Virus genome (UHGV): UHGV-0172001
DNA from: a virus
Strand: one strand, 5' to 3'
Length of the DNA stretch: 46,559 nt
Positions 1,075 to 20,999 of this stretch are shown in pieces (the stretch's first letter is position 1; each line of letters begins with the position of its first letter). The position numbers and the translations under genes were made by a program. A model generated the notes under the pieces. It did not search any database. It was not told where the DNA came from and saw nothing but the letters and a program-made list of their open reading frames with translations.

Positions 1075-2193
1075 TCAAACAACCAATTTAACCCATTCCT
1101 GACCACGAGTATCGTTATAACGATCGGTGGTTGCCTGGACTTTATGTCCCAGTAATGTTTTTGTATCAATACCCTGCGCGCGGTACAGTCGTTCTGACAG
1201 GGAGCGTTGTTCATGAAATGTTGGCGGAGTTTTTCCTGCTGGTGGAGTTATCCCAGCCAGATCCCGTGCTTTGGCAAAGTAGTCGCTCAGGTTGTCTTTA
1301 CTCATCGGCTTTGGTTGTTTCTGGTGCCGACTATGGATTAGATATGGACTTAATATTCTGTCTCGGCACCCATCAATAACTTCTTTTAACGTTATCCCAA
1401 TGGCATCACAGCGTAGTGTAAGCGGTAACGCCAGACGCATTCCGGTTTTTCCCTGGGTGATATGCAAGTGTTCGTTCCACACATCTGAAAAACGCATGTG
1501 GCAAATGTCATCACGGCGCTGACCAGTAACAATCGCAAGAAGCATTGCGTTACGGATAAAGTGTTTTTCAGGCGTTGCGTTGTAAATTTTTTGCCAGTCT
1601 TCCAGGGTGAGCCTGGCTCTAGTTACTTTAGGGATCGGTTTACGGGTAGCCTCCGGAGGATTCCATCCAGGAGGAACTTCCCCTGCATGCTGTGCTTCTT
1701 TATAAATATCAACCCATAATCCACGATTTACTCTCGCTGTGCTGACCATGTCTTTATCCAGCCACTCATCCAGTATTAATGCAAAGTCTCTTACTTCCAG
1801 TTCTTTCAATGGGTAGTTTCCCAGACGGGAAACCAGGTATGCAGCCATTCGGGCTTTTTCTTTGTGAGTTGTAGCTGCAATATCTCCATTTTTCAGTCGC
1901 GTGTCCTGTATTTTCAGATATCGATCAACCCATGCCTTTAATCTGATACCCCGACGTTTTGTTGCTGACGGGCTTTCATCAATTTTGCGCATGAAATATT
2001 CAGCTTCTGCTGCTGCTATTCGCTGATTGGCTGTGGAAGCAATTTTTTCTGCTTTACCTTTATCTGTTCCGAGTCCGTGAAATTTTCCAGTCACAGGGTT
2101 TTTATACTGGTAGTAAACCCTGCCAGTTCTGCGATCAAACTTTTCGTAAAGACCGGCTACGTCAGTGCTGTTTTTTCGTGGCCTCGGTGACAT
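1075..2193 (-). CDS. int: Lambda-family tyrosine integrase
   Basis: 372 aa; C-terminus HEQRSLSERLYRAQGIDTKTLLGHKVQATTDRYNDTRGQEWVKLVV parallels the lambda Int catalytic C-terminus (H-x-x-R ... LLGH ... Y); start overlaps the xis 3' end as in lambda. Confidence 0.95.
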   Translation of the reverse strand: MSPRPRKNSTDVAGLYEKFDRRTGRVYYQYKNPVTGKFHGLGTDKGKAEKIASTANQRIAAAEAEYFMRKIDESPSATKRRGIRLKAWVDRYLKIQDTRLKNGDIAATTHKEKARMAAYLVSRLGNYPLKELEVRDFALILDEWLDKDMVSTARVNRGLWVDIYKEAQHAGEVPPGWNPPEATRKPIPKVTRARLTLEDWQKIYNATPEKHFIRNAMLLAIVTGQRRDDICHMRFSDVWNEHLHITQGKTGMRLALPLTLRCDAIGITLKEVIDGCRDRILSPYLIHSRHQKQPKPMSKDNLSDYFAKARDLAGITPPAGKTPPTFHEQRSLSERLYRAQGIDTKTLLGHKVQATTDRYNDTRGQEWVKLVV

Positions 2194-5026: not shown

Positions 5027-5230
5027 TTACGGTGCTGTTTTAAGTCCTGCCGGGACTTCGTTATTATCCATGCGAATAACTTTATCGACCGGATAACAGT
5101 TACCGGGAATTTTCTGTTCATCTGCGGCAGCCATGCATTCTTCCATTGAGTCACGTATATCAACAATAAGATCAAGTGGTTCGCCTGTATTAAGAAAAAC
5201 TGTCAGAACGAGTGCGTATGCTGTATTCAT
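5027..5230 (-). CDS. Hypothetical early-left-operon protein
   Basis: 67-aa ORF from an internal ATG with AGGA upstream; 4-nt overlap with the upstream ORF suggests translational coupling. Confidence 0.4.
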   Translation of the reverse strand: MNTAYALVLTVFLNTGEPLDLIVDIRDSMEECMAAADEQKIPGNCYPVDKVIRMDNNEVPAGLKTAP

Positions 5231-5415
5231 TGCCAGTATCCTTTTTGCATCAGACGTAAACGGGCCAGCATTGAAACAATGCATATTTGATTTAATAACT
5301 CCCGTTCGTGTTTTCTCTTATTAATGGCATCTTCAGTAAATGCAGGGTTACTGATACTGACACCAATTTCAAAACAACCTTCAGACGTATTAACGTTTGG
5401 TAATAACGTTTCCAT
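5227..5415 (-). CDS. Hypothetical early-left-operon protein
   Basis: 62-aa ORF, ATGA overlap with the downstream ORF. Confidence 0.4.
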   Translation of the reverse strand: METLLPNVNTSEGCFEIGVSISNPAFTEDAINKRKHERELLNQICIVSMLARLRLMQKGYWQ

Positions 5416-5984
5416 TATCGCGTCCTCAACAATGAATTTTGTGATGCGGTGCCTGGTGCCTCCAGGTGACGTTAACCAGTTAACAATTAACGCCGGATAC
5501 AGGGAAACCCATAAACACCCGATACGGGGGAACTAATCGCTTTTTAACTGTTCCGCGTGCGCTGAGCCGCATTCACCGCATCACAAAATTCACTTTAAAA
5601 AGGGCGGACATCAGCCAGCAATGAAACTGATGCCGCCAAAAGGTAATCAACATGGGTTGTTGCAGCGGGGTTGTCACTTAAGCGTATGGTCAGCCTGACA
5701 ACCTGGTGCATTTTCTGGAGCAATGGAGGAAACCCCAGCCATACTTACCGCCGCGCCATTTCGCGGATTGCCACAACCGGAAGCGCACAATCGAAGAAAT
5801 CTAACGACAAGCCCTCTAAGGAAAAGACACCTCCGCCGTGCGCTTTCGCGTTATGCCCTGAGTTTTCAGGGATATATCCTTTCAGTAAACTGCCAGTGCC
5901 GGATTCTTATCCGTGTCCGGCGCACGACAACACGCTGTCACGTGTGGTCTCCATTCTCAACCAGTAACCTCAATGGAGGATAAA

Positions 5985-6194
5985 ATGCCAAACAAGCCAA
6001 TACATCCGCTTATTGAAAAACAGATTGAATGCCTGGTTAATCAACTCAGGCAATCAGGGTTATTAAAAACTCATTCAGAGCTAGGACTCACAGAATCGGC
6101 ATTCGACGATAAATTAAATAATGCGCTTTATAATGGCATCATTGATTACAATCGTGGTGCTGGTCGTCGTGGCCCTGCTGGTACAGCTTTGTAA
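5985..6194 (+). CDS. Hypothetical small protein, convergent and abutting the 6195-6833 gene
   Basis: ATG at 5985 preceded by GGAGGA; stop TAA at 6192-6194 directly abuts the stop of the minus-strand gene (TAATTA). Confidence 0.35.
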   Translation: MPNKPIHPLIEKQIECLVNQLRQSGLLKTHSELGLTESAFDDKLNNALYNGIIDYNRGAGRRGPAGTAL

Positions 6195-6844: not shown

Positions 6845-6997
6845 TCAGTCAGTGTTTCTGGCCAACCAGCGACGCGCGCCAGATTCGGTTTTAAACGTTT
6901 TGCTTTTGGTATACGTCATAGCGGTGAACGTGCCGTCCTGGTTTGGAAACACGCCGTACACCAGAGACTCGTTGTTGTCAAGATAGATAGTATCCAT
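6845..6997 (-). CDS. Small hypothetical protein downstream of the repressor (YdaF/YdaG-like position)
   Basis: 50-aa ORF from ATG 6997 with GAGG 7 nt upstream. Confidence 0.4.
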   Translation of the reverse strand: MDTIYLDNNESLVYGVFPNQDGTFTAMTYTKSKTFKTESGARRWLARNTD

Positions 6998-7193
6998 GCT
7001 GACCTCATTTCCCCTTAACGCCGGGGTAGCGGAACTAAGACCTGTCGCACCGTTGTGCTTTGATGGTTGAATGATACTATTCAAAGTAGATAAGTCAACA
7101 CAAAAAGTAGAATTTATTGTATCGTTTTCTATATAAAGTTGTTTTTTAAGGCAAAAAAAACCGGCAATGCCGGGTTTGTTAATGGATAAAAAA

Positions 7194-7679
7194 TCACTCG
7201 GAAGGAGGGGGGCAGGCGTATTCCTTGTAGAAATCGTAAAGCTTCTTGAGTCTCATCTCAAAAGCTAGGAGCATGTTCTTGGCTTCAACGGGGGGGAACT
7301 CTCGATACGTTCGTATCAGTCGTTTTTCATCCTCACTCAACTCGGCGAACTCACCACTACAGCTGGTGTCGGATTCTTGTGTTGTAAATGCTCCCCCTGT
7401 CGGTTCACTTCCTTTTTCCACCAGTTGACCATATTCCAGCCATGCGGGCTCGACCCCCAGGAACTCCGCTATTCGCTCAAGTTTTTCGTCTCGCGGTTTA
7501 GCGGTGCCCAGGGTATAGCGCCGCGCCATTTCGTATGTAACACCCGTGGACAGGCTTAAATCCCTGATGGATACATTTTTTTTGTCCATCTCAGACTTAA
7601 GCCTTGTCGCGAATGCGTGATGTTTATGTGTGCTTTCTATCATATGTGGAAGGTTAAAGCAGTTACCGTGTTTCGTCAT
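7194..7679 (-). CDS. Prophage repressor, XRE-family HTH (CI/RacR-like), no LexA-type peptidase domain
   Basis: HTH segment KKNVSIRDLSLSTGVTYEMARRYTLGTAKP; divergent from a cro-like gene; start uncertain (ATG 7679 or 7643, no strong SD). Confidence 0.8.
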   Translation of the reverse strand: MTKHGNCFNLPHMIESTHKHHAFATRLKSEMDKKNVSIRDLSLSTGVTYEMARRYTLGTAKPRDEKLERIAEFLGVEPAWLEYGQLVEKGSEPTGGAFTTQESDTSCSGEFAELSEDEKRLIRTYREFPPVEAKNMLLAFEMRLKKLYDFYKEYACPPPSE

Positions 7680-7694
7680 TTCTATTTTGTGTAG

Positions 7695-7722
7695 TTGCAA
7701 TTTCTACTTTTCGTAGTATTAT
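7695..7722 (+). promoter_or_regulatory. Candidate rightward early promoter (PR-like) with overlapping operator-like palindromes
   Basis: TTGCAA (7695-7700), 16-bp spacer, TATTAT (7717-7722); GTAG-N9-CTAC and CTAC-N5-GTAG palindromes at 7691-7716; about 28 bp upstream of the YdaS-like ATG. Confidence 0.5.
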
Positions 7723-7749
7723 GGCGTCATTCTTGAAACGAGGTTAACG

Positions 7750-8034
7750 ATGAGTACGACGCATAAAAACATCACAGAAAAGGCGGTTACGGCAATTGGA
7801 TCCCCTACAGCTGTAAGCCGCATGTTTGGTTTTAGATCGCCTCAATCCATCTTCAACTGGATTATCCGAAACAGGGTACCCGGCGAAAGGGTTATCAGGC
7901 TTTGTGAATTGGGGGGGTGGGTTGTTACACCGCATGATCTCCGTCCCGATCTGCATCCCACTCCGATTAGCGGGATTCCAGAAGATGTTATCAGATCCAA
8001 AAAAATAGGGTTGATTCATGAAAATCAAGCATGA
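7750..8034 (+). CDS. YdaS-like Cro-type HTH protein
   Basis: VTPHDLRPDLHPTP matches the Rac YdaS motif VTPHELRPDIYPNP; first gene of the rightward operon. Confidence 0.8.
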   Translation: MSTTHKNITEKAVTAIGSPTAVSRMFGFRSPQSIFNWIIRNRVPGERVIRLCELGGWVVTPHDLRPDLHPTPISGIPEDVIRSKKIGLIHENQA

Positions 8035-8443
8035 ACACATCCGCATGGCGATGAATACCTGGGCGCATCCGGACGGTGAAAAAGTTCCGGCAGCTGAAAT
8101 AACCCGGGCTTATTTTGAGCTGGGTATGACGTTCCCGGAATTATATGACGACAGCCATCCGGAAGCCCTGGCTCGCAATACCCAGAAAATTTTCCGCTGG
8201 GTAGAGAAAGACACTCCTGATGCGGTTAAAAAAATTCAGGCGTTGTTACCAGCGATCGAAAAAGCAATGCCGCCTCTGCTGGTGGCCCGAATGCGCAGCC
8301 ACAGTTCAGCCTGGTTTCGAGAGCTGGTGGAGACGCGGGAACGGCTGGTGAGAGATGCTGATGATTTTGTCGCAGTGGCGATCGCTGGTTTCAACCAGAT
8401 GAATCGTGGTGGTCCGGCGGGAAATGCTGTGGTGATGCACTAA
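8018..8443 (+). CDS. YdaT-like protein
   Basis: N-terminus MKIKHEHI identical to E. coli YdaT; follows the YdaS-like gene with overlap. Confidence 0.75.
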   Translation: MKIKHEHIRMAMNTWAHPDGEKVPAAEITRAYFELGMTFPELYDDSHPEALARNTQKIFRWVEKDTPDAVKKIQALLPAIEKAMPPLLVARMRSHSSAWFRELVETRERLVRDADDFVAVAIAGFNQMNRGGPAGNAVVMH

Positions 8444-8466: not shown

Positions 8467-9414
8467 ATGAGCAGCAAGCTTCATGGTCTTGTCTGGGAAG
8501 GGTGTGCCTTCACCGGCATGATCTTATCCCGGGTGGCAGTAATGGCTCGCCTTGCAGACTACAGCAATGACGAAGGTGTGTCATGGCCTGCAGTGGAGAC
8601 TATTCGTCGTCAGATTGGGGCAAAGAGTGAATCAACGGTTAAAGCGGCGATAGCGGAACTGGAAAAGAACGGCTGGCTGACGAAGGAGGAACGTAAGGTC
8701 GGTGGGCGTAATGAAAGCAATATCTACCGTCTTAATGTGGAAAAACTCGAAGCAGCAGCAGCGGCGGCGCGTGAGGCATATAAACCGAAAAGAAAAATTA
8801 ACCCGGTAAAAAATGACCCGTCAAATATTGACCCCTCAACGGTTGACCCGTCAAATTTTGATGGATCAACCGTTGATAAAAAACAGCCGGTTAGGGGGGC
8901 GATGGTTGGCCCCGATCCGTCAGTATTAAAACCTGATCCGTCAGATAAAAGATCTTCTTGTCCGGAAGCTTCGCAACCGGACCTGCAGGCGGCTGAACAG
9001 GATTTTTTAACCCGACACCCTGACGCGGTTGTGTTCAGTGCGAAAAAACGCCAGTGGGGCAACCAGGAGGATTTAGCGTGTGCGCAGTGGATCTGGGGAC
9101 GAATCGTGAGTCTTTACGAACAGGCTGCCAGCGATGATGGTGAGATCACGCGACCGAAAGAACCCAACTGGACTGCATGGGCCAATGACGTGCGCACAAT
9201 GCGGATGCTTGATGGCAGAACTCACAGACAAATTTGCGAAATGTTTGGTCGGGTACAGCGGGATCCATTCTGGGTAAAAAACGTCATGAGCCCGTCAAAG
9301 CTTCGCGAAAAATGGGACGAACTGGTCATCCGCCTGGGGCGTTCGCCTGTACAGCGTTGTGTGAATCACATTTCTGAACCGGACACCGAAATTCCGCCGG
9401 GCTTCAGGGGGTAA
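8467..9414 (+). CDS. Putative replication initiator (O-like) with internal iterons
   Basis: N-terminal winged-helix-like region; central repetitive linker DPSNIDPSTVDPSNFDGSTVD encoded by the iteron DNA; position after the cro/cII-equivalent genes. Confidence 0.55.
   Translation: MSSKLHGLVWEGCAFTGMILSRVAVMARLADYSNDEGVSWPAVETIRRQIGAKSESTVKAAIAELEKNGWLTKEERKVGGRNESNIYRLNVEKLEAAAAAAREAYKPKRKINPVKNDPSNIDPSTVDPSNFDGSTVDKKQPVRGAMVGPDPSVLKPDPSDKRSSCPEASQPDLQAAEQDFLTRHPDAVVFSAKKRQWGNQEDLACAQWIWGRIVSLYEQAASDDGEITRPKEPNWTAWANDVRTMRMLDGRTHRQICEMFGRVQRDPFWVKNVMSPSKLREKWDELVIRLGRSPVQRCVNHISEPDTEIPPGFRG
8814..8944. repeat. Iteron array (candidate replication origin) inside the initiator gene
   Basis: Repeated 11-13-bp units TGACCCGTCAAAT / TTGACCCCTCAAC / TTGACCCGTCAAAT / TGATGGATCAACC, plus two GATCCGTCAG copies. 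Confidence 0.6.
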
Positions 9415-9454
9415 GTGTTAATTTCTGGTCATGAGGTAATTTTCAGGAGGGCTT

Positions 9455-9874
9455 GTGGCAAAAGTATTTACACAAGAAGAGCGGGAAAAAATTAAGGGGC
9501 TGGTTGTTGAACTTGTACGCCAGAGCGGGCGCGAGACGTTACGACAACTGGAAGCTAAGACAGGTGCGACAAGATATTTAATAAGCGTTCTTGCCAGAGA
9601 GCTGGTTGCCAGTGGCGATGTATACAACTCTGGTTACGGGTTATTCCCGTCTGAACAGGCGCGTAAGGACTGGCAAAACGCCCGCAAAAAACTCTCGAGG
9701 GCAAAGCTGAAGAAAACATCTGTGGTTGATCCGGACCTTATCTGGTCGTTACCAGACGGAGAAATACGCCGCTACGACAGGCGTCAGAACATAATCTGTC
9801 GCGAGTGCCGGAGAAGTGAAGTTATGCAGCGAGTTTTGATGTTTTACAGGGGTAATAACGGAGCAACGATATGA
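9455..9874 (+). CDS. Hypothetical protein
   Basis: 139-aa ORF, GTG start at 9455 after CAGGAGG. Confidence 0.5.
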   Translation: MAKVFTQEEREKIKGLVVELVRQSGRETLRQLEAKTGATRYLISVLARELVASGDVYNSGYGLFPSEQARKDWQNARKKLSRAKLKKTSVVDPDLIWSLPDGEIRRYDRRQNIICRECRRSEVMQRVLMFYRGNNGATI

Positions 9875-10170
9875 GGGTTTATATCGCAGGGCCGATGACC
9901 GGGTATAAAAATTTCAACCGTGAGGCATTTCACGAGGCGGAAGAGAAGCTGAAACAGAAAGGGTGCACGGTGTTGAATCCGGCAGTGCTTCCTGGTGGGC
10001 TGACACAGGCGCAGTACATGGATATTTGTACGGCGATGCTCCGCTGTGTGGATACGATTTACATGCTGAAAGGCTGGCATCGGTCGGCAGACGCTAAGGC
10101 AGAACTGGCGCTGGCGGCGAAACTGGGGCATGAGGTTGTATTTCAGGAGGCAACCAGTGAGCGAGATTAA
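9871..10170 (+). CDS. Nucleoside 2-deoxyribosyltransferase-like (DUF4406-type) protein
   Basis: MRVYIAGPMTG N-terminus typical of this family; ATGA coupling with the upstream gene. Confidence 0.55.
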   Translation: MRVYIAGPMTGYKNFNREAFHEAEEKLKQKGCTVLNPAVLPGGLTQAQYMDICTAMLRCVDTIYMLKGWHRSADAKAELALAAKLGHEVVFQEATSERD

Positions 10171-10744
10171 CTATCAGGCACTGCGTGAGGCGGCAGAAGC
10201 AATAAAAATAGCAGCCACACCACAAAAATTGCTGGCATTTCGTATGAAGGTCACACCTCAGGTTGTGCTGGCACTGCTGGATGAACGGGAAAGAAACCAG
10301 CAATACATAAAACGCCGCGATCAGGAGAACGAGGAAATTGCGCTAACGGTAGGGAAGCTGCGTGTTGAGCTTGAAGCAGAAAAATCAAAACTCAACGAGC
10401 AGCGTGAGTATTACGAGGGAGTAATCGCGGATGGAAGTAAGCGCATAGCAGAACTGGAAGCACGGGAAATAAAACCAGCCAAAGGCGAAGTTCTTGTCGT
10501 TGTATCTGGTTTTACTGGTTGCGGGAAAAGCGCCATTGCCGGGGAAATAGAAATTGCGATGAAAGCTATTGGTGTGCCGGTTCTATGGACTAATGGCGAT
10601 GCGGAAAAGCGCATGACAGGAGCTGACTGGCTGACAGCGATTGAGATGTACAAACCAACTGTGTGCATCGTGGAAGTTAATGTGCCACGCGCCGCTGGCA
10701 TTCGCATCAAAGGAGAGGAGCATGCAAATAAAACCAGAAGATGA
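10157..10744 (+). CDS. Hypothetical protein: coiled-coil N-terminus, C-terminal Walker-A-like motif
   Basis: GTG at 10157 after CAGGAGG; heptad-rich KLRVELEAEKSKLNEQREYYEG; SGFTGCGKSA resembles a P-loop. Confidence 0.5.
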   Translation: MSEINYQALREAAEAIKIAATPQKLLAFRMKVTPQVVLALLDERERNQQYIKRRDQENEEIALTVGKLRVELEAEKSKLNEQREYYEGVIADGSKRIAELEAREIKPAKGEVLVVVSGFTGCGKSAIAGEIEIAMKAIGVPVLWTNGDAEKRMTGADWLTAIEMYKPTVCIVEVNVPRAAGIRIKGEEHANKTRR

Positions 10745-11078
10745 GTTAAGTAATATTGTTTTATTTCCGGTAAAGGAGGATGACCCACGTGATCAGGTTA
10801 ATTTTCTTTATGAGCCATCGGAAAGACCATACTGCCATCACGCTTCTGTCCGGGTTGACGAAAAAGAGCGTCAGGTCCGCTGTAAAATCTGCGGTGCAGT
10901 TGTGGAGCCGTTTGACTGGATGCTCTCAGTGGCGAAAAGAGAAACCAGACTGGCAGATGATGTAAGGCTATTGCGCCAGGAGGAACAGGAAAGGCGGAAA
11001 AATATAGAAAAGTTAATTCAGATTGAGCGTAACGCGAAAGCGCGGATACGCAGGGCGACAAAATCCAGAACTGAATAA
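10722..11078 (+). CDS. Hypothetical protein with CxxC pair
   Basis: ATG 10722 after AAAGGAGAGGAG; CHHASVRV...CKICG. Confidence 0.45.
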   Translation: MQIKPEDELSNIVLFPVKEDDPRDQVNFLYEPSERPYCHHASVRVDEKERQVRCKICGAVVEPFDWMLSVAKRETRLADDVRLLRQEEQERRKNIEKLIQIERNAKARIRRATKSRTE

Positions 11079-11171
11079 ATTTAGCGCTGTAAATACAATT
11101 TAATCCTTAACCGGAGGGATTCCTGCACCCTCAGAACATCAGGAGGCCGCCCGAAAGGGCGGTAATGAAAA

Positions 11172-11579
11172 ATGGCTGAATTAACCAAAGAGCAATTAAT
11201 CGAAGAGGCCAAATTAAAAATAGCGATTACGAAATGTCACCCCCATTCAGGGATGGCACGGATAGAGGGTGAGTTATTCAAAATTGCACTGGCATCGCTG
11301 GAATCAGAGCCGGTGGCGTCATGCATTATTGAAGATGGGGGCATGTGTGTTGATGGATTCGGTGAGTATGTAGGTCACTCACTGCCTGATGGAAGCCACG
11401 ACCTTTACACCGCCCCGCCAGCGCCGGTAGTGCCTGAAGGGCTTGTTAAAGCGGTACGCTTTTATGAACAGGTAAAGTGTGAGAATCCGCCAGCTGAAAC
11501 CGGAGCATGGAAAGACGCTGTTGACTGGGTGCTCAAAGAGGCTTGCCAGGCTGTAAACATTGGCAACAAAGGAGAGTGA
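11172..11579 (+). CDS. Hypothetical protein
   Basis: 135-aa ORF. Confidence 0.5.
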   Translation: MAELTKEQLIEEAKLKIAITKCHPHSGMARIEGELFKIALASLESEPVASCIIEDGGMCVDGFGEYVGHSLPDGSHDLYTAPPAPVVPEGLVKAVRFYEQVKCENPPAETGAWKDAVDWVLKEACQAVNIGNKGE

Positions 11580-11580
11580 T

Positions 11581-11799
11581 GTGTCTACATTATTCAGAAA
11601 AGAATATCCGCGAAAAAGTAGAGCGACAGAATTTTTGTTTCTCATTCTGTTTATCGTGTTGATGACACCGATATCCCCGCTAATTTTTGTCTGGGCAATC
11701 GGGAAAATAATTGAGCCAGTTATTGAATTATATAACGACGTGGTATGGGCGTCGTTCAATACACTGCACAATAAAATTAATCCATATAAGGAAAACTGA
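11581..11799 (+). CDS. Small membrane protein
   Basis: GTG 11581 after AAAGGAGAG; hydrophobic stretch FLFLILFIVLMTPISPLIFVWAIG. Confidence 0.4.
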   Translation: MSTLFRKEYPRKSRATEFLFLILFIVLMTPISPLIFVWAIGKIIEPVIELYNDVVWASFNTLHNKINPYKEN

Positions 11800-11800
11800 A

Positions 11801-12166
11801 ATGGCACTGACGAAAAAACAACGTGCAGAGCTGCGCATGAAGTTCGGCGGTCGCTGTGCTTATTGTGGCTGCGAACTTGGCGAAAAGTGGCATGTAGACC
11901 ATGTAAAACCGGTCATTCGTTTTGCTGGAAATATGCTTCACCAGGAACGTGACGATATATCCAACATGGTTCCGGCATGCCACCCATGCAATCTGCATAA
12001 GCATTGCAGTAGCCTGGAAGATTATCGGCGAATTATCAGTGATGGTCGTCGTGAATTCCTTGCGTCCGGGAAAGGCAAGGCGCTGGTTCGTATGGGATTG
12101 GTTGAAATGAAATCTGACCCGGTTGTGTTCTGGTTTGAAAAATATCAAGAAGGGGCTACCGCATGA
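11801..12166 (+). CDS. HNH endonuclease
   Basis: CAYCGC...HVDHVKP...N...CHPCNLHK: HNH motif with two CxxC pairs. Confidence 0.85.
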   Translation: MALTKKQRAELRMKFGGRCAYCGCELGEKWHVDHVKPVIRFAGNMLHQERDDISNMVPACHPCNLHKHCSSLEDYRRIISDGRREFLASGKGKALVRMGLVEMKSDPVVFWFEKYQEGATA

Positions 12167-12549
12167 CCACTTTTACCAATAGCAAACTAACAGACGAATA
12201 CGTTTCAAATGCAACGTTGATTCGGCTCATTCTGTGGGCTGACCAGCACAATAGCCATTATGTTGTAGCGGCTCTGCGCGAGCTACAGGAGCGCCGCAAG
12301 GCTGATAGTGTGCCTGTAGAAATCAACGACGACATGGCTTACGCATTTCACCATGCGCTTTCTGACTCATCGCTTGGCTCTGATGAAATCGAAGAAATTA
12401 AAACCGGGTTGCGCGCAGCCTTTGCCAATGTTGCCGTCCAGCCTGCGCTGATAGTGCCGGCTGAAATCGAGCCAGACGATAGCAATACGTTTGATTATGT
12501 TGATGGCTGGAACGCCTGCCGCGCCGCCATGCTTAAGGGAGATAAATAA
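12163..12549 (+). CDS. Hypothetical protein
   Basis: 128-aa ORF, ATGA overlap with HNH. Confidence 0.5.
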   Translation: MTTFTNSKLTDEYVSNATLIRLILWADQHNSHYVVAALRELQERRKADSVPVEINDDMAYAFHHALSDSSLGSDEIEEIKTGLRAAFANVAVQPALIVPAEIEPDDSNTFDYVDGWNACRAAMLKGDK

Positions 12550-13112
12550 TGATTAATCGAACCAAACTGGAACACATTCTCGAATATGCCAGGCAGCAGA
12601 AATGTATTGGGCAACTTTGTAAAATTCCACCAGGAGATATGGTTGAAATCGTGGAAATGGCCATGCGTAAGGCTGGCAACTCTCCGGTAACTCCGGCTCG
12701 CCTGCCTGGTGGTTTCACCATTGAGGATGCGAAGGAGTTACATGAAGACCTGGTTCGCAGCCACATAAGCCAGGCTTTAAGTGGTGAAAAGATGAAAAAG
12801 AACGATCGCGATACTGATTTGCGCTGGATTCATGGCGTTATAGTACAGGCAGCGTGGTTTGTGAAAGCTTCACTGGATGCGTTGCCTGAACCGCTGCGGG
12901 AGGAGAAGGGAGGAAGTGCCAACTGTACTGCCAGTCATGGTACAACCGACAATCCACCAGTACCAGGCAAACAGACTGACGAATTAACCATGCTGGTTAA
13001 GCAATTGGTCAGTCAACTGAAGAAAGTGAAGCCGGACTGTAAATTGCCGGATAAGGCGATGGACTACCTGAAACGGAACGAACTGATAAGTGCGGAGGAT
13101 GTTTTGCGATGA
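12549..13112 (+). CDS. Hypothetical protein
   Basis: 187-aa ORF. Confidence 0.5.
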   Translation: MINRTKLEHILEYARQQKCIGQLCKIPPGDMVEIVEMAMRKAGNSPVTPARLPGGFTIEDAKELHEDLVRSHISQALSGEKMKKNDRDTDLRWIHGVIVQAAWFVKASLDALPEPLREEKGGSANCTASHGTTDNPPVPGKQTDELTMLVKQLVSQLKKVKPDCKLPDKAMDYLKRNELISAEDVLR

Positions 13113-13192
13113 CCTGGCCTGAAGCATTCACAACGGTAGGAATTGCGATGGCGGTGGCGCTGATGGTGTATTCGATTTGCCGCTGGGGATAA
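13109..13192 (+). CDS. Possible 27-aa hydrophobic micro-protein
   Basis: ATGA overlap with the upstream gene; MTWPEAFTTVGIAMAVALMVYSICRWG; followed by a terminator. Confidence 0.25.
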   Translation: MTWPEAFTTVGIAMAVALMVYSICRWG

Positions 13193-13200
13193 CAAACAAA

Positions 13201-13228
13201 AACCCCGGATTGATGGTCCGGGGTTTTT
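13201..13228 (+). terminator. Rho-independent terminator
   Basis: AACCCCGG-attgatggt-CCGGGGTT plus T run; near-copy of the hairpin at 1005-1029. Confidence 0.7.
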
Positions 13229-13509
13229 GAAGGAAACAAAACAGAAACAACAATTGCCGTTACCTGTTGTTACCATGGCAAGTAAACGTATCTCAGGCGA
13301 GCGCATTGCGCCGTTCTGACGCAGATAAATTAGCCTGGATAGATGGTGCTGGCAATAAAAAATAGCGTTTTCTTATCGGTGTCGGTAAGATTGCTGCGGG
13401 TGCTTGAGGCTGTCTGCCTCGGGCATGCCACTGTAAGGCAGACAGAGAAAAGCCCCAGTTAACATTACGCGTCTTGCAGGACGCTTAACATTAATCTGAG
13501 GCCCAATCT

Positions 13510-13716
13510 ATGCCACACAAACATAGGTTAGCCTCTTACGGACCGAAAGGTCAAGGAGAAGCAGGCTATGAAGCAGCAAAAGGCGATGTTAATCGCCCTG
13601 ATCGTCATCTGTTTAACCGTCATAGTGACGGCACTGGTAACGAGGAAAGACCTCTGCGAGGTACGAATCCGAACCGGCCAGACGGAGGTTGCTGTCTTCG
13701 TAGACTACGAATCTGA
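13510..13716 (+). CDS. mok-like overlapping reading frame of the hok locus
   Basis: 68-aa ORF overlapping nearly all of hok in another frame, as in hok/mok/sok loci. Confidence 0.45.
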   Translation: MPHKHRLASYGPKGQGEAGYEAAKGDVNRPDRHLFNRHSDGTGNEERPLRGTNPNRPDGGCCLRRLRI

Positions 13717-13723
13717 GAAGTAA
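13568..13723 (+). CDS. Hok/Gef-family type I toxin (HokD/RelF-like)
   Basis: MKQQKAMLIALIVICLTVIVTALVTRKDLCEVRIRTGQTEVAVF is near-identical to HokD as recalled; 51 aa; structured leader with a 10-bp stem at about 13395-13430. Confidence 0.9.
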   Translation: MKQQKAMLIALIVICLTVIVTALVTRKDLCEVRIRTGQTEVAVFVDYESEK

Positions 13724-13792
13724 GAGTGACCAGGCGGGAGAGTAATCTCCCGCCACCTCTGATGTGTCGGCATCCTCAACGCACCCGCACTT

Positions 13793-13814
13793 AACCCGCT
13801 TCGGCGGGTTTTTT
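13793..13814 (+). terminator. Rho-independent terminator after hok
   Basis: AACCCGCTTCGGCGGG plus T6; identical 22-nt element recurs at 14633-14656. Confidence 0.75.
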
Positions 13815-13934
13815 CACGTACTGTGGTTGTGAATACGATTGGTATTAGGCTATGCTAACAACATTAGCCTGACTAATTTTGTATTGACTTGATTTTTTGT
13901 TAAAGAACAGGACGGAGAAGTAAGGGTACACCCA

Positions 13935-14114
13935 ATGAGCTACGCACTAAAAAAACACCCGCGATTGAGTATTCCCCCTCGCGATAAAAGCGTTGTGGCA
14001 GCTCCGCGCCCGGCTATTGATGAAAATTGCACACATCGTGAGCAGGTGAAAAATGCTTTCGATTTCGGTTTTTCTCGTTACGAGAAGGCAATGGAAGAAC
14101 TTTCAAAAGTGTAA
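13935..14114 (+). CDS. Small protein upstream of the Doc-like gene; candidate cognate antitoxin, not Phd-like
   Basis: 59-aa ORF ending 19 bp before the Doc-like start; palindrome AGGCT-N-AGCCT at about 13845-13871 upstream. Confidence 0.4.
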   Translation: MSYALKKHPRLSIPPRDKSVVAAPRPAIDENCTHREQVKNAFDFGFSRYEKAMEELSKV

Positions 14115-14132
14115 TAATGGGTATTGTGCTCT

Positions 14133-14618
14133 ATGGCTGAGATTGTTGAAGGAGTGCACTATCTTTCGGTTGATGATCTTACTGAAATCAATCGCCTTTT
14201 AATTGAGCTTCAAACACCAGATGAACCTGTAGGTGTGCTGAGTGTTGATAATTTAAGTTCTTCTCAGGCCCGTCCCAGCATGGTTCGATGGTATGAACAG
14301 ACTAATGACATGTTTGTACTGGCATCGGTATTGATTGAAAGTCTGATTCAGAATCATCCGTTTGCTAATGCGAACAAACGAACAGCTATGATGGCTGGTT
14401 ACGTCTTCTTGTTGTTGAATGGCTATGAGTTAACAGCACCAGGCGATGAAATCGTTGAAATGGCAGAGGGACTGGCCTGCAAAACCTATACTCGAGAAGA
14501 TCTCGAGAACTGGTTGTGTTATTGGTCTCGCGCGTATGACAGCCGGGAATTATGTAAAACAGGCGCAACTATTGTTTTGTATGAAACTATCAAGCTTAAA
14601 ATAGAACAGCAAAACTAA
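14133..14618 (+). CDS. Fic/Doc-family (death-on-curing-like) protein
   Basis: HPFANANKRTAMMAG matches the Doc/Fic motif HxFx(D/N)(A/G)NKR. Confidence 0.8.
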   Translation: MAEIVEGVHYLSVDDLTEINRLLIELQTPDEPVGVLSVDNLSSSQARPSMVRWYEQTNDMFVLASVLIESLIQNHPFANANKRTAMMAGYVFLLLNGYELTAPGDEIVEMAEGLACKTYTREDLENWLCYWSRAYDSRELCKTGATIVLYETIKLKIEQQN

Positions 14619-14632
14619 AGGTGCTTCCAATG

Positions 14633-14656
14633 AAAACCCGCTTCGGCGGGTTTTTT
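14633..14656 (+). terminator. Rho-independent terminator after the Doc-like gene
   Basis: AAACCCGCTTCGGCGGG plus T6. Confidence 0.75.
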
Positions 14657-14846
14657 GTTGTTTATTTTCGGTGAGTATGATGCATCTGGTTGTACTGATG
14701 TGATTGGCTGATTCTGTTATTCAGGTGGCTTATTGCTGTTGATTGGCATGTCTTCGCGGCTAGAATCGAGGCTCTTGAGTAGCGCGCAGGGAGAAGAGGG
14801 ATGGACCCCTTAAGGGGAGGTGTTTAAAGTTCACGGGATTTTGGTT

Positions 14847-15014
14847 ATGAACGATAAGGAATTAATTGCTGCGCTTTCTGTACCTGGTAATTATGAAGTA
14901 ATTGTTCTTGAGAATGGTGAATTTATCGTAATGCCATTGCCATCCGATGTTATTCTGATCACCAAAGAATCGCATGCGGATTCGGTCAGTCACTTCAGCA
15001 TTAAGAAAGACTAG
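14847..15014 (+). CDS. Hypothetical small protein
   Basis: ORF only; start uncertain (GTG 14820 or ATG 14847). Confidence 0.3.
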   Translation: MNDKELIAALSVPGNYEVIVLENGEFIVMPLPSDVILITKESHADSVSHFSIKKD

Positions 15015-15080
15015 ATTATAATGCCGTAGTCAAAGCCAGCCTGAACAACTGGCGTCTGTCGCACCATTACGAGGACAGTA

Positions 15081-15359
15081 GTGGTGCATTACAAGAAAAT
15101 TAACAATTCTGATAATTCAGCCGTCTTTGCCAGCAGGCACGGGCGGCGCTCTCACGCATTCAAATATGACTGGTACCAGCATGACCCCTGCACTGAAGAA
15201 CAGGCCGAATGGCTGATTCAGAACTACCGCAGGCGTGGGTACGAGTTTCAGAAAGACCTCAGTCCTGACTTCCGACACTGGATAATTTCTGTCAGGCTCC
15301 CTTATTCCGAACGCCCACCGTGTCCGTCCCGCACATTCCAGCAACGCATCTGGAGGTAA
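15081..15359 (+). CDS. Hypothetical protein
   Basis: GTG 15081 with GAGGA 5 nt upstream. Confidence 0.45.
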   Translation: MVHYKKINNSDNSAVFASRHGRRSHAFKYDWYQHDPCTEEQAEWLIQNYRRRGYEFQKDLSPDFRHWIISVRLPYSERPPCPSRTFQQRIWR

Positions 15360-15360
15360 C

Positions 15361-16410
15361 GTGCGGGTATTGCTTCGACCTGTTCCGGTACCGGAACTTG
15401 GGCTGGTGGTGCTAAAACCGGGCCGTGAATCCATGCGGGTATTTCATAATCCTCGAGTACTGGTGGAGCCGGAACCGAAAAGCATGTGCAGTCTGCCGTC
15501 CGGAGTTGTTCCTGCCGTTCGCCAGCCGCTGGCGGAAGATAAATCATTGCTGCCATTTTTCAGCGACGAACGGGTGATTCGTGCTGCCGGCGGCGCTGGT
15601 GCACTGTCTGACTGGCTCCTGCGTCATGTTAAATCCTGCCAGTGGCCTCATGGTGACTACCATCACAGTGAAACCGTCATACATCGTTACGGTACCGGCG
15701 CGATGGTGTTGTGCTGGCACTGCGACAACCAGCTGCGGGACCAGACCTCAGAATCACTTGAGCAACTTGCTCAACAAAACCTGACAGCATGGATGATTGA
15801 CGTCATCCGTCACGCAATAAGCGGTGCGCAGGAGCGTGAATTATCGCTGGCTGAATTATCCTGGTGGGCTGTCTGCAATCAGGTGGCGGACGCACTACCG
15901 GAGGTAGTATTACGTCGTTCTCTGGGGTTACGTGCGGAAAAAATTCGCTCGGTGTACCGCGAAAGCGACATCATACCGGGAGAGCAGACAGCCACCAGCA
16001 TACTGAAGCAGCGCACAAAAAATATTGCGCTACCACCTCACGCCCACCAGCAACAGAACCCACCACAGGAAAAGACGGTGGTAAGCATTGCCGTTGATCC
16101 AGATTCTCCGGAATCTTTCATGAAGCGCCCTAAACGTCGCCGCTGGGTTAACGAGAAATACACGCGCTGGGTAAAGATGCAGCCGTGTGCGTGTTGTGGT
16201 AAGCCAGCCGACGATCCCCATCACCTGATTGGTCACGGTCAGGGAGGGATGGGAACAAAGGCCCACGATATTTTTACGCTACCGCTGTGCCGGGAGCATC
16301 ACAACGAACTTCATGCTGATCCGCTGGCATTTGAAGAAAAGCATGGTTCCCAGATTGATTTAATTTTTCGTTTTCTTGATCACGCCTTTGCAACCGGTGT
16401 GCTCGGGTAA
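15361..16410 (+). CDS. DUF968-type prophage protein with C-terminal HNH-like Cys/His cluster
   Basis: CACCGKPADDPHHLIGHGQGGMGTKAHDIFTLPLCREHHNELH; start uncertain (GTG 15361 or ATG 15433). Confidence 0.65.
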   Translation: MRVLLRPVPVPELGLVVLKPGRESMRVFHNPRVLVEPEPKSMCSLPSGVVPAVRQPLAEDKSLLPFFSDERVIRAAGGAGALSDWLLRHVKSCQWPHGDYHHSETVIHRYGTGAMVLCWHCDNQLRDQTSESLEQLAQQNLTAWMIDVIRHAISGAQERELSLAELSWWAVCNQVADALPEVVLRRSLGLRAEKIRSVYRESDIIPGEQTATSILKQRTKNIALPPHAHQQQNPPQEKTVVSIAVDPDSPESFMKRPKRRRWVNEKYTRWVKMQPCACCGKPADDPHHLIGHGQGGMGTKAHDIFTLPLCREHHNELHADPLAFEEKHGSQIDLIFRFLDHAFATGVLG

Positions 16411-16422
16411 AAGAGGTTACTG

Positions 16423-16797
16423 ATGCGTATAGAGTTTGTTTTGCCTTATCCGCCGACGGTGAACACCTACTGGCGTCGTCGTGGCAGCACATATTTTGTA
16501 TCAAAAGCCGGTGAGCGTTATCGCCGTGATGTGGCGCTTATTGTTCGCCAGCAGCGGCTGAAATCAAACCTGTCCGGAAGGCTGGCAATAAAAATTACTG
16601 CAGAGCCACCAGATAAGCGCCGTCGTGACCTGGACAATATTCTGAAAGCACCACTGGATGCGCTGACGCATGCGGGACTGCTTATCGATGACGAGCAGTT
16701 TGATGAAATTAATATTGTGCGCGGTCAGGTCGTTCCTGGTGGTCGGTTGGGCGTGAAGATTTACGAAATAATGCATGACGGGCAGGTCAAAAAATGA
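16423..16797 (+). CDS. rusA: Holliday junction resolvase RusA
   Basis: PDKRRRDLDNILKAPLDALTHAGLLIDDEQ parallels E. coli RusA [30 protein letters not shown]. Confidence 0.9.
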   Translation: MRIEFVLPYPPTVNTYWRRRGSTYFVSKAGERYRRDVALIVRQQRLKSNLSGRLAIKITAEPPDKRRRDLDNILKAPLDALTHAGLLIDDEQFDEINIVRGQVVPGGRLGVKIYEIMHDGQVKK

Positions 16798-17615
16798 AGC
16801 TGGAAGATTTACCGAAATACTATTCCCCGAAATCGCCAGGCCTGACTGATGCATCCGCCTCGACATCAAAAGATGCACTGAGTATCACTGATGTGATGGC
16901 TGCACAGGGCATGACACAGAACCGGGCTGAGATGGGATTTTCTGCGTTCCTGGGGAAAATGGGCATTAGTATGAACGACAGGGCGCGGGCAACAGAATTA
17001 CTGGCAGATTATGCATTAAGTCAGTGCGATCGCGTGGCGGCGTTAAGAAAACTTCCGGCAGAAATAAAACCGGCAGTGATGCGCATTATGGCTTCGTATG
17101 CTTTTGAGGATTATGCCCGCAGCGCAGCGAGTAAAAAGCAGTGCCCTTGTTGCCATGGGGAAAAATTTATTGAAAGCGAAGTTTTTACAAACAAGGTTCA
17201 GTATCCGGATGGTAAGCCGCCAGTATGGGCAAAGTGTACAAAAGGCGTGTATCCGTCTTACTGGGAAGAATGGAAAAAAATCCGGGAGGTGGTGAAAGTT
17301 TCCTGTCCTGAATGTAAAGGGAAGGGGGAGATCTCCACTGCCTGTAAAGACTGCCGTGGGCGTGGTGTTGCCATTCATCGTGAAGAGTCAGAAAAACGGG
17401 GTATGCCTGTTATCAGGGACTGCCGGCGTTGTGGCGGTCGTGGCCATGAAAGATTACCGTCAACGGAGGCATTTAATGCCATATGCAAAGTGACGAGTGC
17501 TATCACGCTTGATACATGGAAAAAATCAGTGAAACGCTTTTACGATACGTTGGTGGTTCGGTTTGACATTGAAGAGGCATGGGCAGAGCGGCAGTTAAAG
17601 AGGGTAACGCGATAG
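16794..17615 (+). CDS. Late-gene antiterminator Q (phage 82/933W-type)
   Basis: SPKSP, TDVMAAQGM, ASYAFEDYARSAA, multiple CxxC zinc knuckles, RFYDTLVV; followed by a promoter-like element and terminator. Confidence 0.85.
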   Translation: MKLEDLPKYYSPKSPGLTDASASTSKDALSITDVMAAQGMTQNRAEMGFSAFLGKMGISMNDRARATELLADYALSQCDRVAALRKLPAEIKPAVMRIMASYAFEDYARSAASKKQCPCCHGEKFIESEVFTNKVQYPDGKPPVWAKCTKGVYPSYWEEWKKIREVVKVSCPECKGKGEISTACKDCRGRGVAIHREESEKRGMPVIRDCRRCGGRGHERLPSTEAFNAICKVTSAITLDTWKKSVKRFYDTLVVRFDIEEAWAERQLKRVTR

Positions 17616-17620
17616 TGTTG

Positions 17621-17648
17621 TTGATTTTTCCCGAATCTGTGGTAAATT
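17621..17648 (+). promoter_or_regulatory. Candidate late promoter PR' (Q-modified)
   Basis: TTGATT (17621-17626), 16-bp spacer, TGgTAAATT extended -10 (17640-17648); immediately downstream of Q. Confidence 0.4.
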
Positions 17649-17696
17649 CGCCATAACGATGGGCTTTTTGTGCCTGACGTTAGCGTGATTTCTACA

Positions 17697-17720
17697 GCCC
17701 GCCAGCGAGCGGGTTTTTTG
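17697..17720 (+). terminator. tR'-like terminator downstream of the late promoter
   Basis: CCCGCCAGCGAGCGGG plus T6. Confidence 0.7.
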
Positions 17721-17880
17721 TTGTGATAGATAACAACTCCAGGTGGCATTCATTAGTGAATATTAGTTAATGTGTGCTGCCATGCGTTAAAAGATGTCAA
17801 TTCGTTATTGACCGATATCAAATTATGGAAAGATGAATATCATTACTATTGAAAATTCGTTGTTTCAATAGGTGATATTT

Positions 17881-18597
17881 ATGCATAAACTAATTAAGCT
17901 GTTTTCATTTTTTATTGCACTATCGATATCTCAGTGTTATGCCACTAGTAATGAATTCATAAGCGCCAGTAACAGTAGGGCATTTTCATTTTTTTTGCCT
18001 ACAGGGCAAGCAATGGCTATCCAGTATCTTGATGGACTTAAAAGATATTCAGCGAGCGAGATTATAGACGACTTCAATAATAATGAATTGAGAGCGAAGA
18101 AAAAGTATAAAGATGTATTCATCATAAACTCAACAGCGCGGGCGATTAAGCAAGACCTTGATGATAGGTTTTTTGTTCTGCTAAGGGATGGTAATAGTGG
18201 ATTTGAATCGTTTTATGCTTACTATGATAAGAAATCAGAAGGTGACTTAGAGTTTCTTAACGAAGGTGATAATGTGGAGTTTATTTGCTCCAATGTTAAA
18301 AACATCATTATGCCAAGAGCGGAATGTTTTTCTATCGCTTTAAATCTTGAATCTCAAAATATTCAGGGAAATCCTATAAGATTTTTTGATAATGCTTATA
18401 AGTTGCAAAACACTTATAAGGCTACAAAAATAACATTTATACTTTATTCTCTTCTGAAGGATAAAATTGAAAAGGACTGCGAAGAATCTATTGAAGCATG
18501 CAACCTAGCTGCCAGGAAGTTTACGGATAATGGCGCATTACTTGACTCCATGCTTGAACCTTATGCGGATATGTTAAGTAAAATCGGTAACAATTAA
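17881..18597 (+). CDS. AT-rich secreted protein of unknown function (moron)
   Basis: Signal-peptide-like MHKLIKLFSFFIALSISQCYA; markedly AT-rich coding sequence; own hairpin plus T run at 18610-18640; located between Q and lysis. Confidence 0.6.
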   Translation: MHKLIKLFSFFIALSISQCYATSNEFISASNSRAFSFFLPTGQAMAIQYLDGLKRYSASEIIDDFNNNELRAKKKYKDVFIINSTARAIKQDLDDRFFVLLRDGNSGFESFYAYYDKKSEGDLEFLNEGDNVEFICSNVKNIIMPRAECFSIALNLESQNIQGNPIRFFDNAYKLQNTYKATKITFILYSLLKDKIEKDCEESIEACNLAARKFTDNGALLDSMLEPYADMLSKIGNN

Positions 18598-18609
18598 CAA
18601 GGTTACATT

Positions 18610-18640
18610 CCAGCCATCCTGCCAGGGCTGCTTTTTTTTA
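18610..18640 (+). terminator. Terminator-like hairpin after the moron
   Basis: CAGCC-N10-GGCTG followed by T8. Confidence 0.5.
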
Positions 18641-18720
18641 CCTCATTTACATCTATTGCTTGCTGGCTTTTTCGACAAGAGTTATTGGTATGTCACGTTA
18701 ACCAGAAAAGGGAAAAAGAC

Positions 18721-18918
18721 ATGCTAAAACAGCAGGATATGACCGAAACCGCCAGAGTGGTGTTTAATGAGTTAAGCGTCAGCGAACCGGCGACCGTCGG
18801 GGAGATTGCACAGAATACTTACCTTTCACGCGAACGCTGCCAGTTAATACTGACCCAGCTTGTTATGGCGGGTCTGGCAGATTATCAGTTCGGTTGTTAC
18901 AGACGCCTTCCGCAGTGA
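18721..18918 (+). CDS. Hypothetical small protein
   Basis: ORF; start uncertain. Confidence 0.35.
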   Translation: MLKQQDMTETARVVFNELSVSEPATVGEIAQNTYLSRERCQLILTQLVMAGLADYQFGCYRRLPQ

Positions 18919-19068
18919 AGGCTTTTTAATTTGTGGTAATGGGCGGCTGGTGGGTGTTAGCGGCACCTGCCAGCCATCTGCTCATGCGTTGGGGTCACAA
19001 GCAAACCTCAGGCCCATCTGCTTTGCGCAAAAGCAGAATGAGCCTATCAGAGAAGTGCTTATTGATCT

Positions 19069-20115: not shown

Positions 20116-20284
20116 ATGTGTGTATCATCATTTCTGCATTTTATGAATAATAGAAATTTATACATATATTTACGAATATTGACACGGTTTTTAATTGAAA
20201 AAGTATCTGTCCTCATTAATATTCTTTTTCGGTTCCGAGGGGGATGTAAAGCGCGGTCATTTTTATTTTTCCTGAGGAACCAAT

Positions 20285-20360
<76 letters not shown>

Positions 20361-20363
20361 TAT

Positions 20364-20439
<76 letters not shown>

Positions 20440-20801: not shown

Positions 20802-20827
20802 CCGCCGTATCCGGCGGTTTTTTTTAT
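20802..20827 (+). terminator. Rho-independent terminator
   Basis: CCGCCG-tat-CCGGCGG plus T10. Confidence 0.7.
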
Positions 20828-20957
20828 TCAGAATCTCGTTTCTTTATGGTTCGCTGCGGCGGGCCTTTTTTATATCTGCGTTTCACTCAACGTGTATTGA
20901 ATCTGAATACATCACATAAAAGACATCGGTGGATGCCTTCGACGGGGTGTTTTATTA

Positions 20958-20981: not shown

Positions 20982-20999
20982 TTTACAGGAGAAAAAAGT

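Follow-up and report, generated by a model that had tools for sequence, protein, structure and literature searches.

An immunity switch of the DicA/GtgR type, probably relieved by a small protein rather than by repressor self-cleavage, in a lambda-like Escherichia coli prophage

How does a lambda-like prophage leave the lysogenic state when its repressor lacks the peptidase with which LexA and lambda CI cut themselves? The question is raised by a 46,559-nucleotide stretch of virus genome UHGV-0172001 (the window), a mosaic lambda-like prophage of Escherichia coli type. Positions 7071-8443 are its immunity region, which controls the choice between lysis and lysogeny, and a short repressor sits there at the cI position, with operators at the divergent early promoters. 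The switch is a well-built, fairly ordinary example of the non-cleavable type known from the Gifsy phages of Salmonella and from Qin of E. coli. We consider it probable that it works as a DicA/GtgR-type switch, derepressed by a small protein and without RecA-stimulated self-cleavage. Repressors of this kind have been described before (Gifsy GfoR and GtgR, Qin DicA: PMC3121763, PMC10448788) and do not form a new class. What is added here is a complete predicted operator map, an apparent swap of the repressor C-terminus and a weak antirepressor candidate; together they show the wiring of a widespread, uncharacterised enterobacterial prophage immunity type.

7194..7679, minus strand: repressor gene, 161 amino acids (open reading frame, Pfam HTH_3, conserved Met-Thr start, AlphaFold2 model, hhalign)

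The repressor reading frame extends over 7194-7700 on the minus strand and would give 168 amino acids in full; the start used is the ATG at 7679. A Met-Thr start at this point is nearly invariant among 25 aligned homologues and is shared by relatives bearing an S24 peptidase domain, and because it is conserved the protein is assigned 161 residues. Its sequence agrees throughout with that of P0001, an uncharacterised E. coli entry of the public databases. The ATG lies 2 nt from operator OR2 and has no Shine-Dalgarno sequence, recalling leaderless cI and paaR2. In the protein an N-terminal arm leads into an XRE-type helix-turn-helix (HTH), which a disordered linker joins to a two-helix hairpin of DicA/GtgR type at the C-terminus.

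An earlier note on this DNA had described an XRE-type repressor without a recognisable S24 domain, and had considered self-cleavage in the LexA or lambda manner unlikely. The domain search of the C-terminus that it proposed has now been run, and both statements hold. Pfam returns HTH families only (HTH_3, E 1.9e-8), with no match to Peptidase_S24 (PF00717) even at E<=1. The AlphaFold2 model, built with the 25 homologues and numbered here by the 168-residue frame, contains a five-helix HTH at residues 28-90 (predicted local distance difference test, pLDDT, above 90), a low-confidence linker of about 30 residues (94-120) and two C-terminal helices (123-133 and 137-162), the hairpin 123-162 having a pLDDT of 84-91. 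It contains no beta strands. The distant matches of the protein are 239-residue repressors of the LexA family, whose similarity to it is limited to roughly the first 90 residues (47% identity, hhalign 99.9%); they align to about residue 99, and similarity ends with the HTH domain. A cryptic S24 domain was looked for and rejected, the Pfam search, the predicted structure and the profile alignment to S24 relatives showing none. Measured against LexA and lambda CI (MEROPS S24), the repressor has no S24 beta-fold, Ser-Lys dyad or Ala-Gly/Cys-Gly site. It does share with the GfoR/GtgR/DicA class (Lemire 2011) an HTH, a short length (about 135-165 amino acids) and the lack of an S24 domain and of an Ala-Gly site.

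These data also bear on the idea that induction proceeds by proteolysis of the repressor, either RecA-stimulated at a cryptic site or through Lon/ClpXP acting on the disordered linker or the C-terminal tail. The long low-confidence linker would offer such proteases a target, and the N-terminal domain is 47% identical to that of true S24 repressors. The absence of an S24 fold and of a Ser-Lys catalytic domain, a sequence that on direct reading contains neither Ala-Gly nor Cys-Gly, and the finding that the homologous Gifsy repressors are uncleaved on induction (PMC3121763) make proteolysis a highly improbable route; self-cleavage as such appears very unlikely.

The kinship that does extend over the whole protein is with DicA and GtgR. 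Profile alignment with hhalign pairs the repressor with DicA of Qin (94.6%, E 7e-8) and with GtgR of Gifsy-2 (95.7%, E 9e-9), the latter alignment covering the N-terminal arm, the HTH and the C-terminal motif. Both alignments include this motif, L-S-x-x-E-x-x-L-[IL]-x-x-[FY]-R-x-[FL]-P, which reads LSEDEKRLIRTYREFPPVEAKNML in the window repressor, LSPKELELLELFNALPESEQDTQL in DicA and LDEKEETLLSLFNQLPEAEKLRVI in GtgR. The NCBIfam DicA model also aligns along the entire protein, at a score far under its cut-off, and the repressor is a distant member of the DicA/GtgR class and not a DicA orthologue. Homology to RacR was considered and rejected, the best BLASTP E-value being 0.37 over 23 residues. 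In a Foldseek search the repressor model matches 434 Cro and the N-terminal domain of P22 C2, and the matches that extend past the HTH are regulators with an HTH plus a helical tail. Solved structures offer nothing for the repressor family past generic HTH matches. Among the helical-tail proteins are complexes with small protein partners, SinR/SinI and phi106 repressor/AimX, an architecture likewise solved with a small partner and in line with antagonism by a small protein; the same list also contains DdrO and the Salmonella temperate-phage repressor 5d4z.

Because the repressor has no S24 autopeptidase and is homologous to DicA and GtgR, derepression is expected to depend on a small protein. 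On induction the Gifsy repressors stay uncleaved, and small antirepressors under LexA control take them off the DNA; DicA and RacR have been named as E. coli members of this non-cleavable class (PMC3121763). In Qin, the prophage-encoded Rem antagonises DicA and derepresses the DicA-controlled dicBF promoter (PMC10448788). By analogy, the C-terminal hairpin of the window repressor most likely mediates dimerisation, and a small antirepressor would most likely bind the repressor and strip it from DNA. Such a protein could be the product of a 55-residue gene at 14847-15014, of a gene beyond the window or of a gene on another prophage. Dimer binding followed by antirepression is the mechanism we infer.

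What the repressor would bind can be read from the two early promoters.

7695..7722, plus strand: PR, TTGCAA-16-TATTAT, rightward early promoter for ydaS-ydaT and the replication genes
7703..7718, plus strand: operator OR1, TCTACTTTTCGTAGTA, filling the PR spacer and abutting the -10 (matrix score 24.7)
7681..7696, plus strand: operator OR2, TCTATTTTGTGTAGTT, abutting the PR -35 (score 21.8), kept in relatives
7071..7098, minus strand: PL-like leftward early promoter, TTGACT-16-TATCAT (10/12 matches), conserved in relatives
7075..7090, minus strand: operator OL1, TCTACTTTGAATAGTA, in the PL spacer (score 20.7)
7096..7111, minus strand: operator OL2, TCTACTTTTTGTGTTG, overlapping the PL -35 (score 21.4)
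7153..7173, minus strand: intrinsic terminator 3' of the repressor gene, CCGGCATTGCCGG (hairpin 7161-7173) followed by a T run

The sigma70 promoter and the GTAG/CTAC palindromes proposed earlier as candidate operators between the divergent genes are both present. The PR hexamers, TTGCAA at 7695-7700 and TATTAT at 7717-7722, are separated by 16 nt and are kept in seven loci from five genera. Two 13-bp palindrome cores, CTATTTTGTGTAG (7682-7694) and CTACTTTTCGTAG (7704-7716), are spaced 22 bp apart at PR. The pattern CTAYTTNNNRTAG occurs three times in the 46.5-kb window, always at the switch, where 0.15 occurrences would be expected by chance; none of 100 shuffled sequences reached three. A weight matrix trained solely on the operators of relatives, with the window sites left out, selects exactly four sites in the window (20.7-24.7 bits), the next site scoring 11.4 and the maximum in shuffled sequence being 16.8. 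A third PL operator at 7128-7143 was rejected at a score of 10.2, under the shuffled maximum. OR1 is kept, with a variable central dinucleotide, in six related loci (L005, L007, L009, L011, L013 and L014).

PL, a strong promoter, and its operator pair lie outside the interval covered by the earlier note. They are tied to the PR region by a 29-nt inverted repeat, the PL sequence being an inverted copy of the PR region. The related loci, from five genera, share the layout, both promoters and all four operators; the operator flanks TCTAC-TTT and GTAG are constant across loci and the central dinucleotide is free. The terminator hairpin after the repressor gene is likewise kept in all relatives. 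To judge from this conservation, the operators are 16 bp long with a CTAC-N5-GTAG core, the predicted set appears to be complete, and the switch has paired OL and OR operators as in lambda. A dimer of the 161-residue repressor would bind two of the operators at PR, silencing ydaS, ydaT and replication, and two at the mirror-image PL, silencing the leftward operon described below.

On the cro side of the switch are two genes and one further candidate operator.

7750..8034, plus strand: YdaS-type gene, proposed Cro analogue, 94 amino acids (Pfam, phrog_35, PDB 3bd1, Rac YdaS)
8018..8443, plus strand: YdaT-type gene, proposed CII analogue, 141 amino acids (Pfam YdaT_toxin, phrog_163, PDB 3c4r/8bt1)
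8011..8028, no strand assigned: YdaT operator OM, TTGATT-CATGAA-AATCAA, at the end of ydaS and the ydaT start codon

That these genes are YdaS/YdaT-like, as had been suggested from the letters of the locus, is supported by profile and structure matches. The product of the first scores 29.7 bits against Pfam YdaS_toxin (PF15943), marginally short of the cut-off of 30, matches phrog_35 and Xfaso1 Cro (3bd1, E 5e-6), and is 32% identical to Rac YdaS (E 2e-6). Its position and size fit YdaS, and its orthologues in related loci carry precomputed PF15943 matches. The product of the second scores 38.7 bits against YdaT_toxin (PF06254, cut-off 21), matches the CII-like phrog_163 and hardly differs from the crystallised proteins 3c4r (E 1e-88) and 8bt1 (E 1e-80), in agreement with a family defined by a POU-like HTH and a four-helix-bundle tetramer. 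Every related locus has a divergent YdaS-type gene, and all except the Salmonella locus also have a YdaT gene. TTGATT-N6-AATCAA has a single exact match in the window, at the ydaS/ydaT junction, and agrees in motif and position with a footprinted site of CP-933P (PMC9986795). OM would be expected, by that analogy, to serve a PRE-like establishment promoter.

In CP-933P, PaaR2, YdaS and YdaT are analogues of CI, Cro and CII, and the repressor mRNA is leaderless (PMC8630535). Because of the homology to CP-933P, YdaS would act as Cro on the same operators as the repressor and YdaT as CII through its own TTGATT-N6-AATCAA site. The Pfam names YdaS_toxin and YdaT_toxin recall a different proposal, first made for RacR/YdaS/YdaT, in which the pair are toxins restrained by the repressor as in a toxin-antitoxin-like addiction module; racR is indeed essential in K-12 since expression of ydaS/ydaT is toxic (PMC5700373, PMC5700377). 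For the window this is barely credible. The genes occupy the exact cI/cro/cII positions between the PL operon and the replication genes, next to operator pairs at OL and OR, YdaT binds DNA as a tetramer and has its operator in this region (PMC9986795), YdaS and YdaT have been shown to act as Cro and CII analogues (PMC8630535; PMC5917428), and dicB and other early genes account for toxicity on derepression.

Those early genes belong to the leftward operon.

6845..6997, minus strand: DUF1391 gene (ydfA/ydaF-like), first in the leftward operon (Pfam DUF1391, E 2e-26)
5602..5652, minus strand: divergent DicF-like small RNA (Rfam DicF 34.1 bits, E 1.2e-5; below the gathering score of 48)
5227..5415, minus strand: dicB homologue, cell-division inhibitor (87% identity to K-12 DicB)

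The DUF1391 gene starts at an ATG at 6997 preceded by a GAGG Shine-Dalgarno sequence. The operon that PL would drive, and the repressor silence, comprises DUF1391, the DicF-like RNA, dicB and an exonuclease gene, and dicB is likely its toxic payload. Because the operon carries dicB and the DicF-like RNA, a host deprived of the repressor would be expected to suffer toxic effects, as it does when RacR or DicA is lost. Upstream of dicB, the DicF-like RNA has an STnc100-like stretch beside it (5438-5590, minus strand; 34.3 bits, below the threshold of 47). A 69-residue gene (phrog_4274) occupies 5985-6194 on the plus strand inside the operon and is outside PL control because it is on the opposite strand. 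A weaker LexA-like box, TGCTGTATTCATTGCCAGTA (5219-5238, score 16.4), spans the dicB stop codon and the start codon of a DUF1482 gene. It is kept in the relative KFu019, and coding constraint is likely behind its conservation.

The distribution of this immunity type illustrates how its parts move. Homologous loci with repressors 49-81% identical were collected from E. coli, Klebsiella, Enterobacter, Leclercia and Salmonella, and about 60 protein clusters at 90% identity carry the type in the same genera. DNA flanking the immunity region is common to prophages of other immunity types; because this sharing ends at about 7037 and about 8007, the segment between them is an exchangeable immunity cassette. 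Exchange also appears to reach inside the repressor. Two loci of S24 type were inspected, L018 of Enterobacter ludwigii and L020 of Citrobacter portucalensis (repressors P0069 and P0072). Like the window, both have a recognition helix of nearly the same sequence (SYEMARRYTLGTAKPR), operators near-identical in motif at both promoters (e.g. CTACTATAAGTAG and CTACTTAAAGTAG), and a Cro of YdaS type that shows 58% identity to the window's. They differ in that the repressor has an S24 domain as well as an Ala-Gly site, and in that a CII of CP76 type takes the place of YdaT. The window's C-terminal hairpin is also found on unrelated HTH domains, in a 133-residue repressor of Klebsiella prophage records and in a 127-129-residue repressor of prophages in E. 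coli O157:H7, enterotoxigenic E. coli (ETEC) and other strains.

Because Enterobacter and Citrobacter prophages combine the same HTH, operators and Cro with a true S24 domain, the comparison indicates that the C-terminus has been swapped on a conserved DNA-binding, operator and Cro system, which is new here; evidently, repressors of this kind can trade their sensing ends. The locus is a case from nature in which the signal-sensing C-terminus of a repressor was exchanged and its DNA specificity kept, and such swaps bear on how prophages change their inducing signal and on cross-talk between co-resident prophages. A bolder extension, which we hold to be doubtful, is that one immunity specificity has two interchangeable sensors, an S24 domain reading RecA and a hairpin reading a small protein, with the 55-residue protein as a cognate antirepressor recognising the hairpin on any DNA-binding domain. 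Were it true, a single small protein could co-induce heteroimmune prophages sharing the hairpin, and a non-cleavable repressor could give SOS-proof immunity against homoimmune S24 phages.

Which gene would supply the small protein? Among the open reading frames at 9455-24000 there are no antirepressor, Ant, Rha or Bro domains. Profile comparison cannot exclude candidates here because GftA and Rem, two proven antirepressor families, fail to detect each other (0.3%). Nor is the switch itself under LexA control by the two measures applied, CTGT-N8-ACAG being absent from the window and a LexA matrix giving no score above 8 at 7000-7800; the matrix recovers the known Gifsy-2 box as a positive control. 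LexA control of the antirepressors Rem and FsoA is, to our knowledge, not known, unlike that of the Gifsy-1/-2/-3 examples. A very strong LexA-box-like 20-mer, TACTGTAAAAATATCCAGTT, is present elsewhere, at 19077-19096 (score 23.9; training sites 13.9-27.1), inside codons 3-10 of a DNA methyltransferase gene (19069-20115); three further E. coli prophages carry an identical box at the corresponding position. SOS control of the methyltransferase is one possible reading, coincidence another.

14847..15014, plus strand: 55-residue gene, phrog_34610, low-confidence antirepressor candidate

The 55-residue gene is a weak candidate for the antirepressor. It lies between hok/doc and a DUF968 gene, the slot that rem occupies in Qin, and its product is modelled as an alpha-beta-beta-alpha fold (pLDDT 83) for which a search of BFVD gave no significant match. 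The gene occurs in 91 of 5426 complete E. coli genomes and in at least 5 of the 9 with this immunity type. It accompanies the same C-terminal module in all six prophages in which both sequences were read (the window, KFu019, A25, ETEC1731, OkiPb01714 and FDAARGOS_943), across two HTH types and two nin-region contexts. In F8092B the module is present and the gene was matched by DNA only; STEC316, STEC276 and RMDEC465 were placed by coordinates only. KFu019 (L015), the closest relative, whose immunity region is 97.7% identical, has a strong LexA box, TACTGTAATTGTATACAGTA (27299-27318), about 235 bp upstream of its homologue of the gene, within an insertion that has no counterpart in the window and A25.

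A number of observations weigh against derepression by a small protein and against this candidate. The NCBIfam DicA model aligns to repressor residues 27-158 with a score of 28.8, far under its cut-off of 101. Searches of the window by tblastn and with PHROG profiles found no homologue of Rem, GftA or DinI, and no LexA box in the window precedes a small gene, the sole strong one lying inside the methyltransferase gene. The 55-residue family matches the Rem family only weakly and at its N-terminus (hhalign 37%, E 3.5e-4), and among the relatives checked the LexA box upstream of the gene occurs in KFu019 only. The gene is absent from all 50,697 phage records, including Klebsiella records with the related hairpin, and its co-occurrence with the module may reflect mere linkage in related mosaics. 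No full-length member of the repressor family was found in deposited phage genomes, and the window stops within the tail genes and covers only part of the prophage. Finally, no convincing position was found for a repressor promoter. A leftward match, TTAACC-18-CATAAT (7747-7718), overlaps the PR -10 and the ydaS Shine-Dalgarno sequence, weaker versions being drawable in relatives; a leaderless start at the repressor ATG would put the -10 within OR2 and leave an unusually short discriminator.

Several of these points would fit a prophage with no dedicated inducer, in which a bistable repressor/Cro circuit, like those reported for DicA/DicC of Qin and PaaR2/YdaS of CP-933P, flips only stochastically or under general stress and which is effectively not SOS-inducible. 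The lack of an antirepressor homologue and of a suitably placed LexA box, and the lack of an isolated phage with this repressor family, speak for such a circuit, and switching that is spontaneous and needs no antirepressor has been documented at dicBp (PMC10448788) as well as in CP-933P (PMC8630535). After the O-like replication gene the window shows no P- or DnaC-like helicase loader, which hints at a defective prophage. We nevertheless think this account unlikely. Strong conservation of the C-terminal module between genera, and its reuse on different types of HTH domain, point to selection for a protein-protein function that goes further than dimerisation alone, and the prophage looks otherwise complete through the tail genes, part of it lying outside the window. 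Derepression by a small protein is the reading carried forward.

The rest of the window follows the lambda plan.

1075..2193, minus strand: integrase gene, in the leftward arm

With rising coordinates the leftward arm carries, on the minus strand, integrase, excisionase, an 818-residue exonuclease, dicB and the DUF1391 gene, followed by the immunity region. Rightward of the latter are the O-like replication gene, nin-type genes, hok/sok, a Doc-like toxin, DUF968, RusA and Q, and after Q come the methyltransferase, tRNAs, and then lysis, terminase, head and tail genes. At 8467-9874 the O-like gene, with a DnaT-like C-terminal end, is followed directly by a Ren-like/DUF977 gene; relatives have a loader gene, and the prophage may either be defective in replication or rely on a loader of the host. 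The hok/sok type I toxin-antitoxin locus is at 13398-13723 (Rfam sok, 109 bits). Directly after it, at 13935-14618, a 59-residue gene and the Doc-like toxin gene form a pair that resembles an insertion when compared with related prophages. Two tRNA genes (20285-20357 and 20364-20435) separate the methyltransferase gene from the lysis genes.

Among known systems, Rac (RacR/YdaS/YdaT) has the same gene order of DUF1391, repressor, ydaS and ydaT, and a short repressor with no S24 domain. Its RacR has no detectable similarity to the window repressor, and YdaS and YdaT are 31-32% identical between the two.

CP-933P is closer on the cro side. It also has a short non-S24 repressor divergent from ydaS-ydaT, its YdaT is near-identical, and TTGATT-N6-AATCAA lies at the same junction. 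The repressor start of the window, which lacks a Shine-Dalgarno sequence and stands directly beside operators, recalls leaderless paaR2 (PMC8630535). The window differs in having no paaA2-parE2 pair behind the repressor, and the operator repeats of CP-933P are of the GTTTAGTAA type as against CTAC-N5-GTAG.

The S24 CI repressors of Enterobacter and Citrobacter (P0069 and P0072) have a homologous N-terminal arm and HTH and near-identical operators at PR and PL. They part from the window in their S24 autopeptidase C-terminus with its Ala-Gly site, and in their CP76-type CII.

Gifsy-1, -2 and -3, with the repressors GfoR, GfhR and GtgR and the antirepressors GfoA, GfhA and GftA, represent the same non-cleavable class of lambdoid repressor. 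The window has neither their dinI-antirepressor-irsA unit nor a LexA box 1-2 kb past the replication genes, and the Cro and CII types differ.

Qin differs from the window in its repressor, DicA being about 16-28% identical in pairwise comparison, in its DicC as against YdaS/YdaT, in its operators, and in its Rem, which has no homologue in the window. The two are alike in having a short XRE repressor with no S24 domain and the same C-terminal helical motif, and in the terminator after the repressor gene, which is followed by a repressed promoter driving DUF1391 (ydfA), DicF and dicB. They are alike, too, in the nin-region slot between hok and DUF968, which holds rem in Qin and the 55-residue gene in the window.

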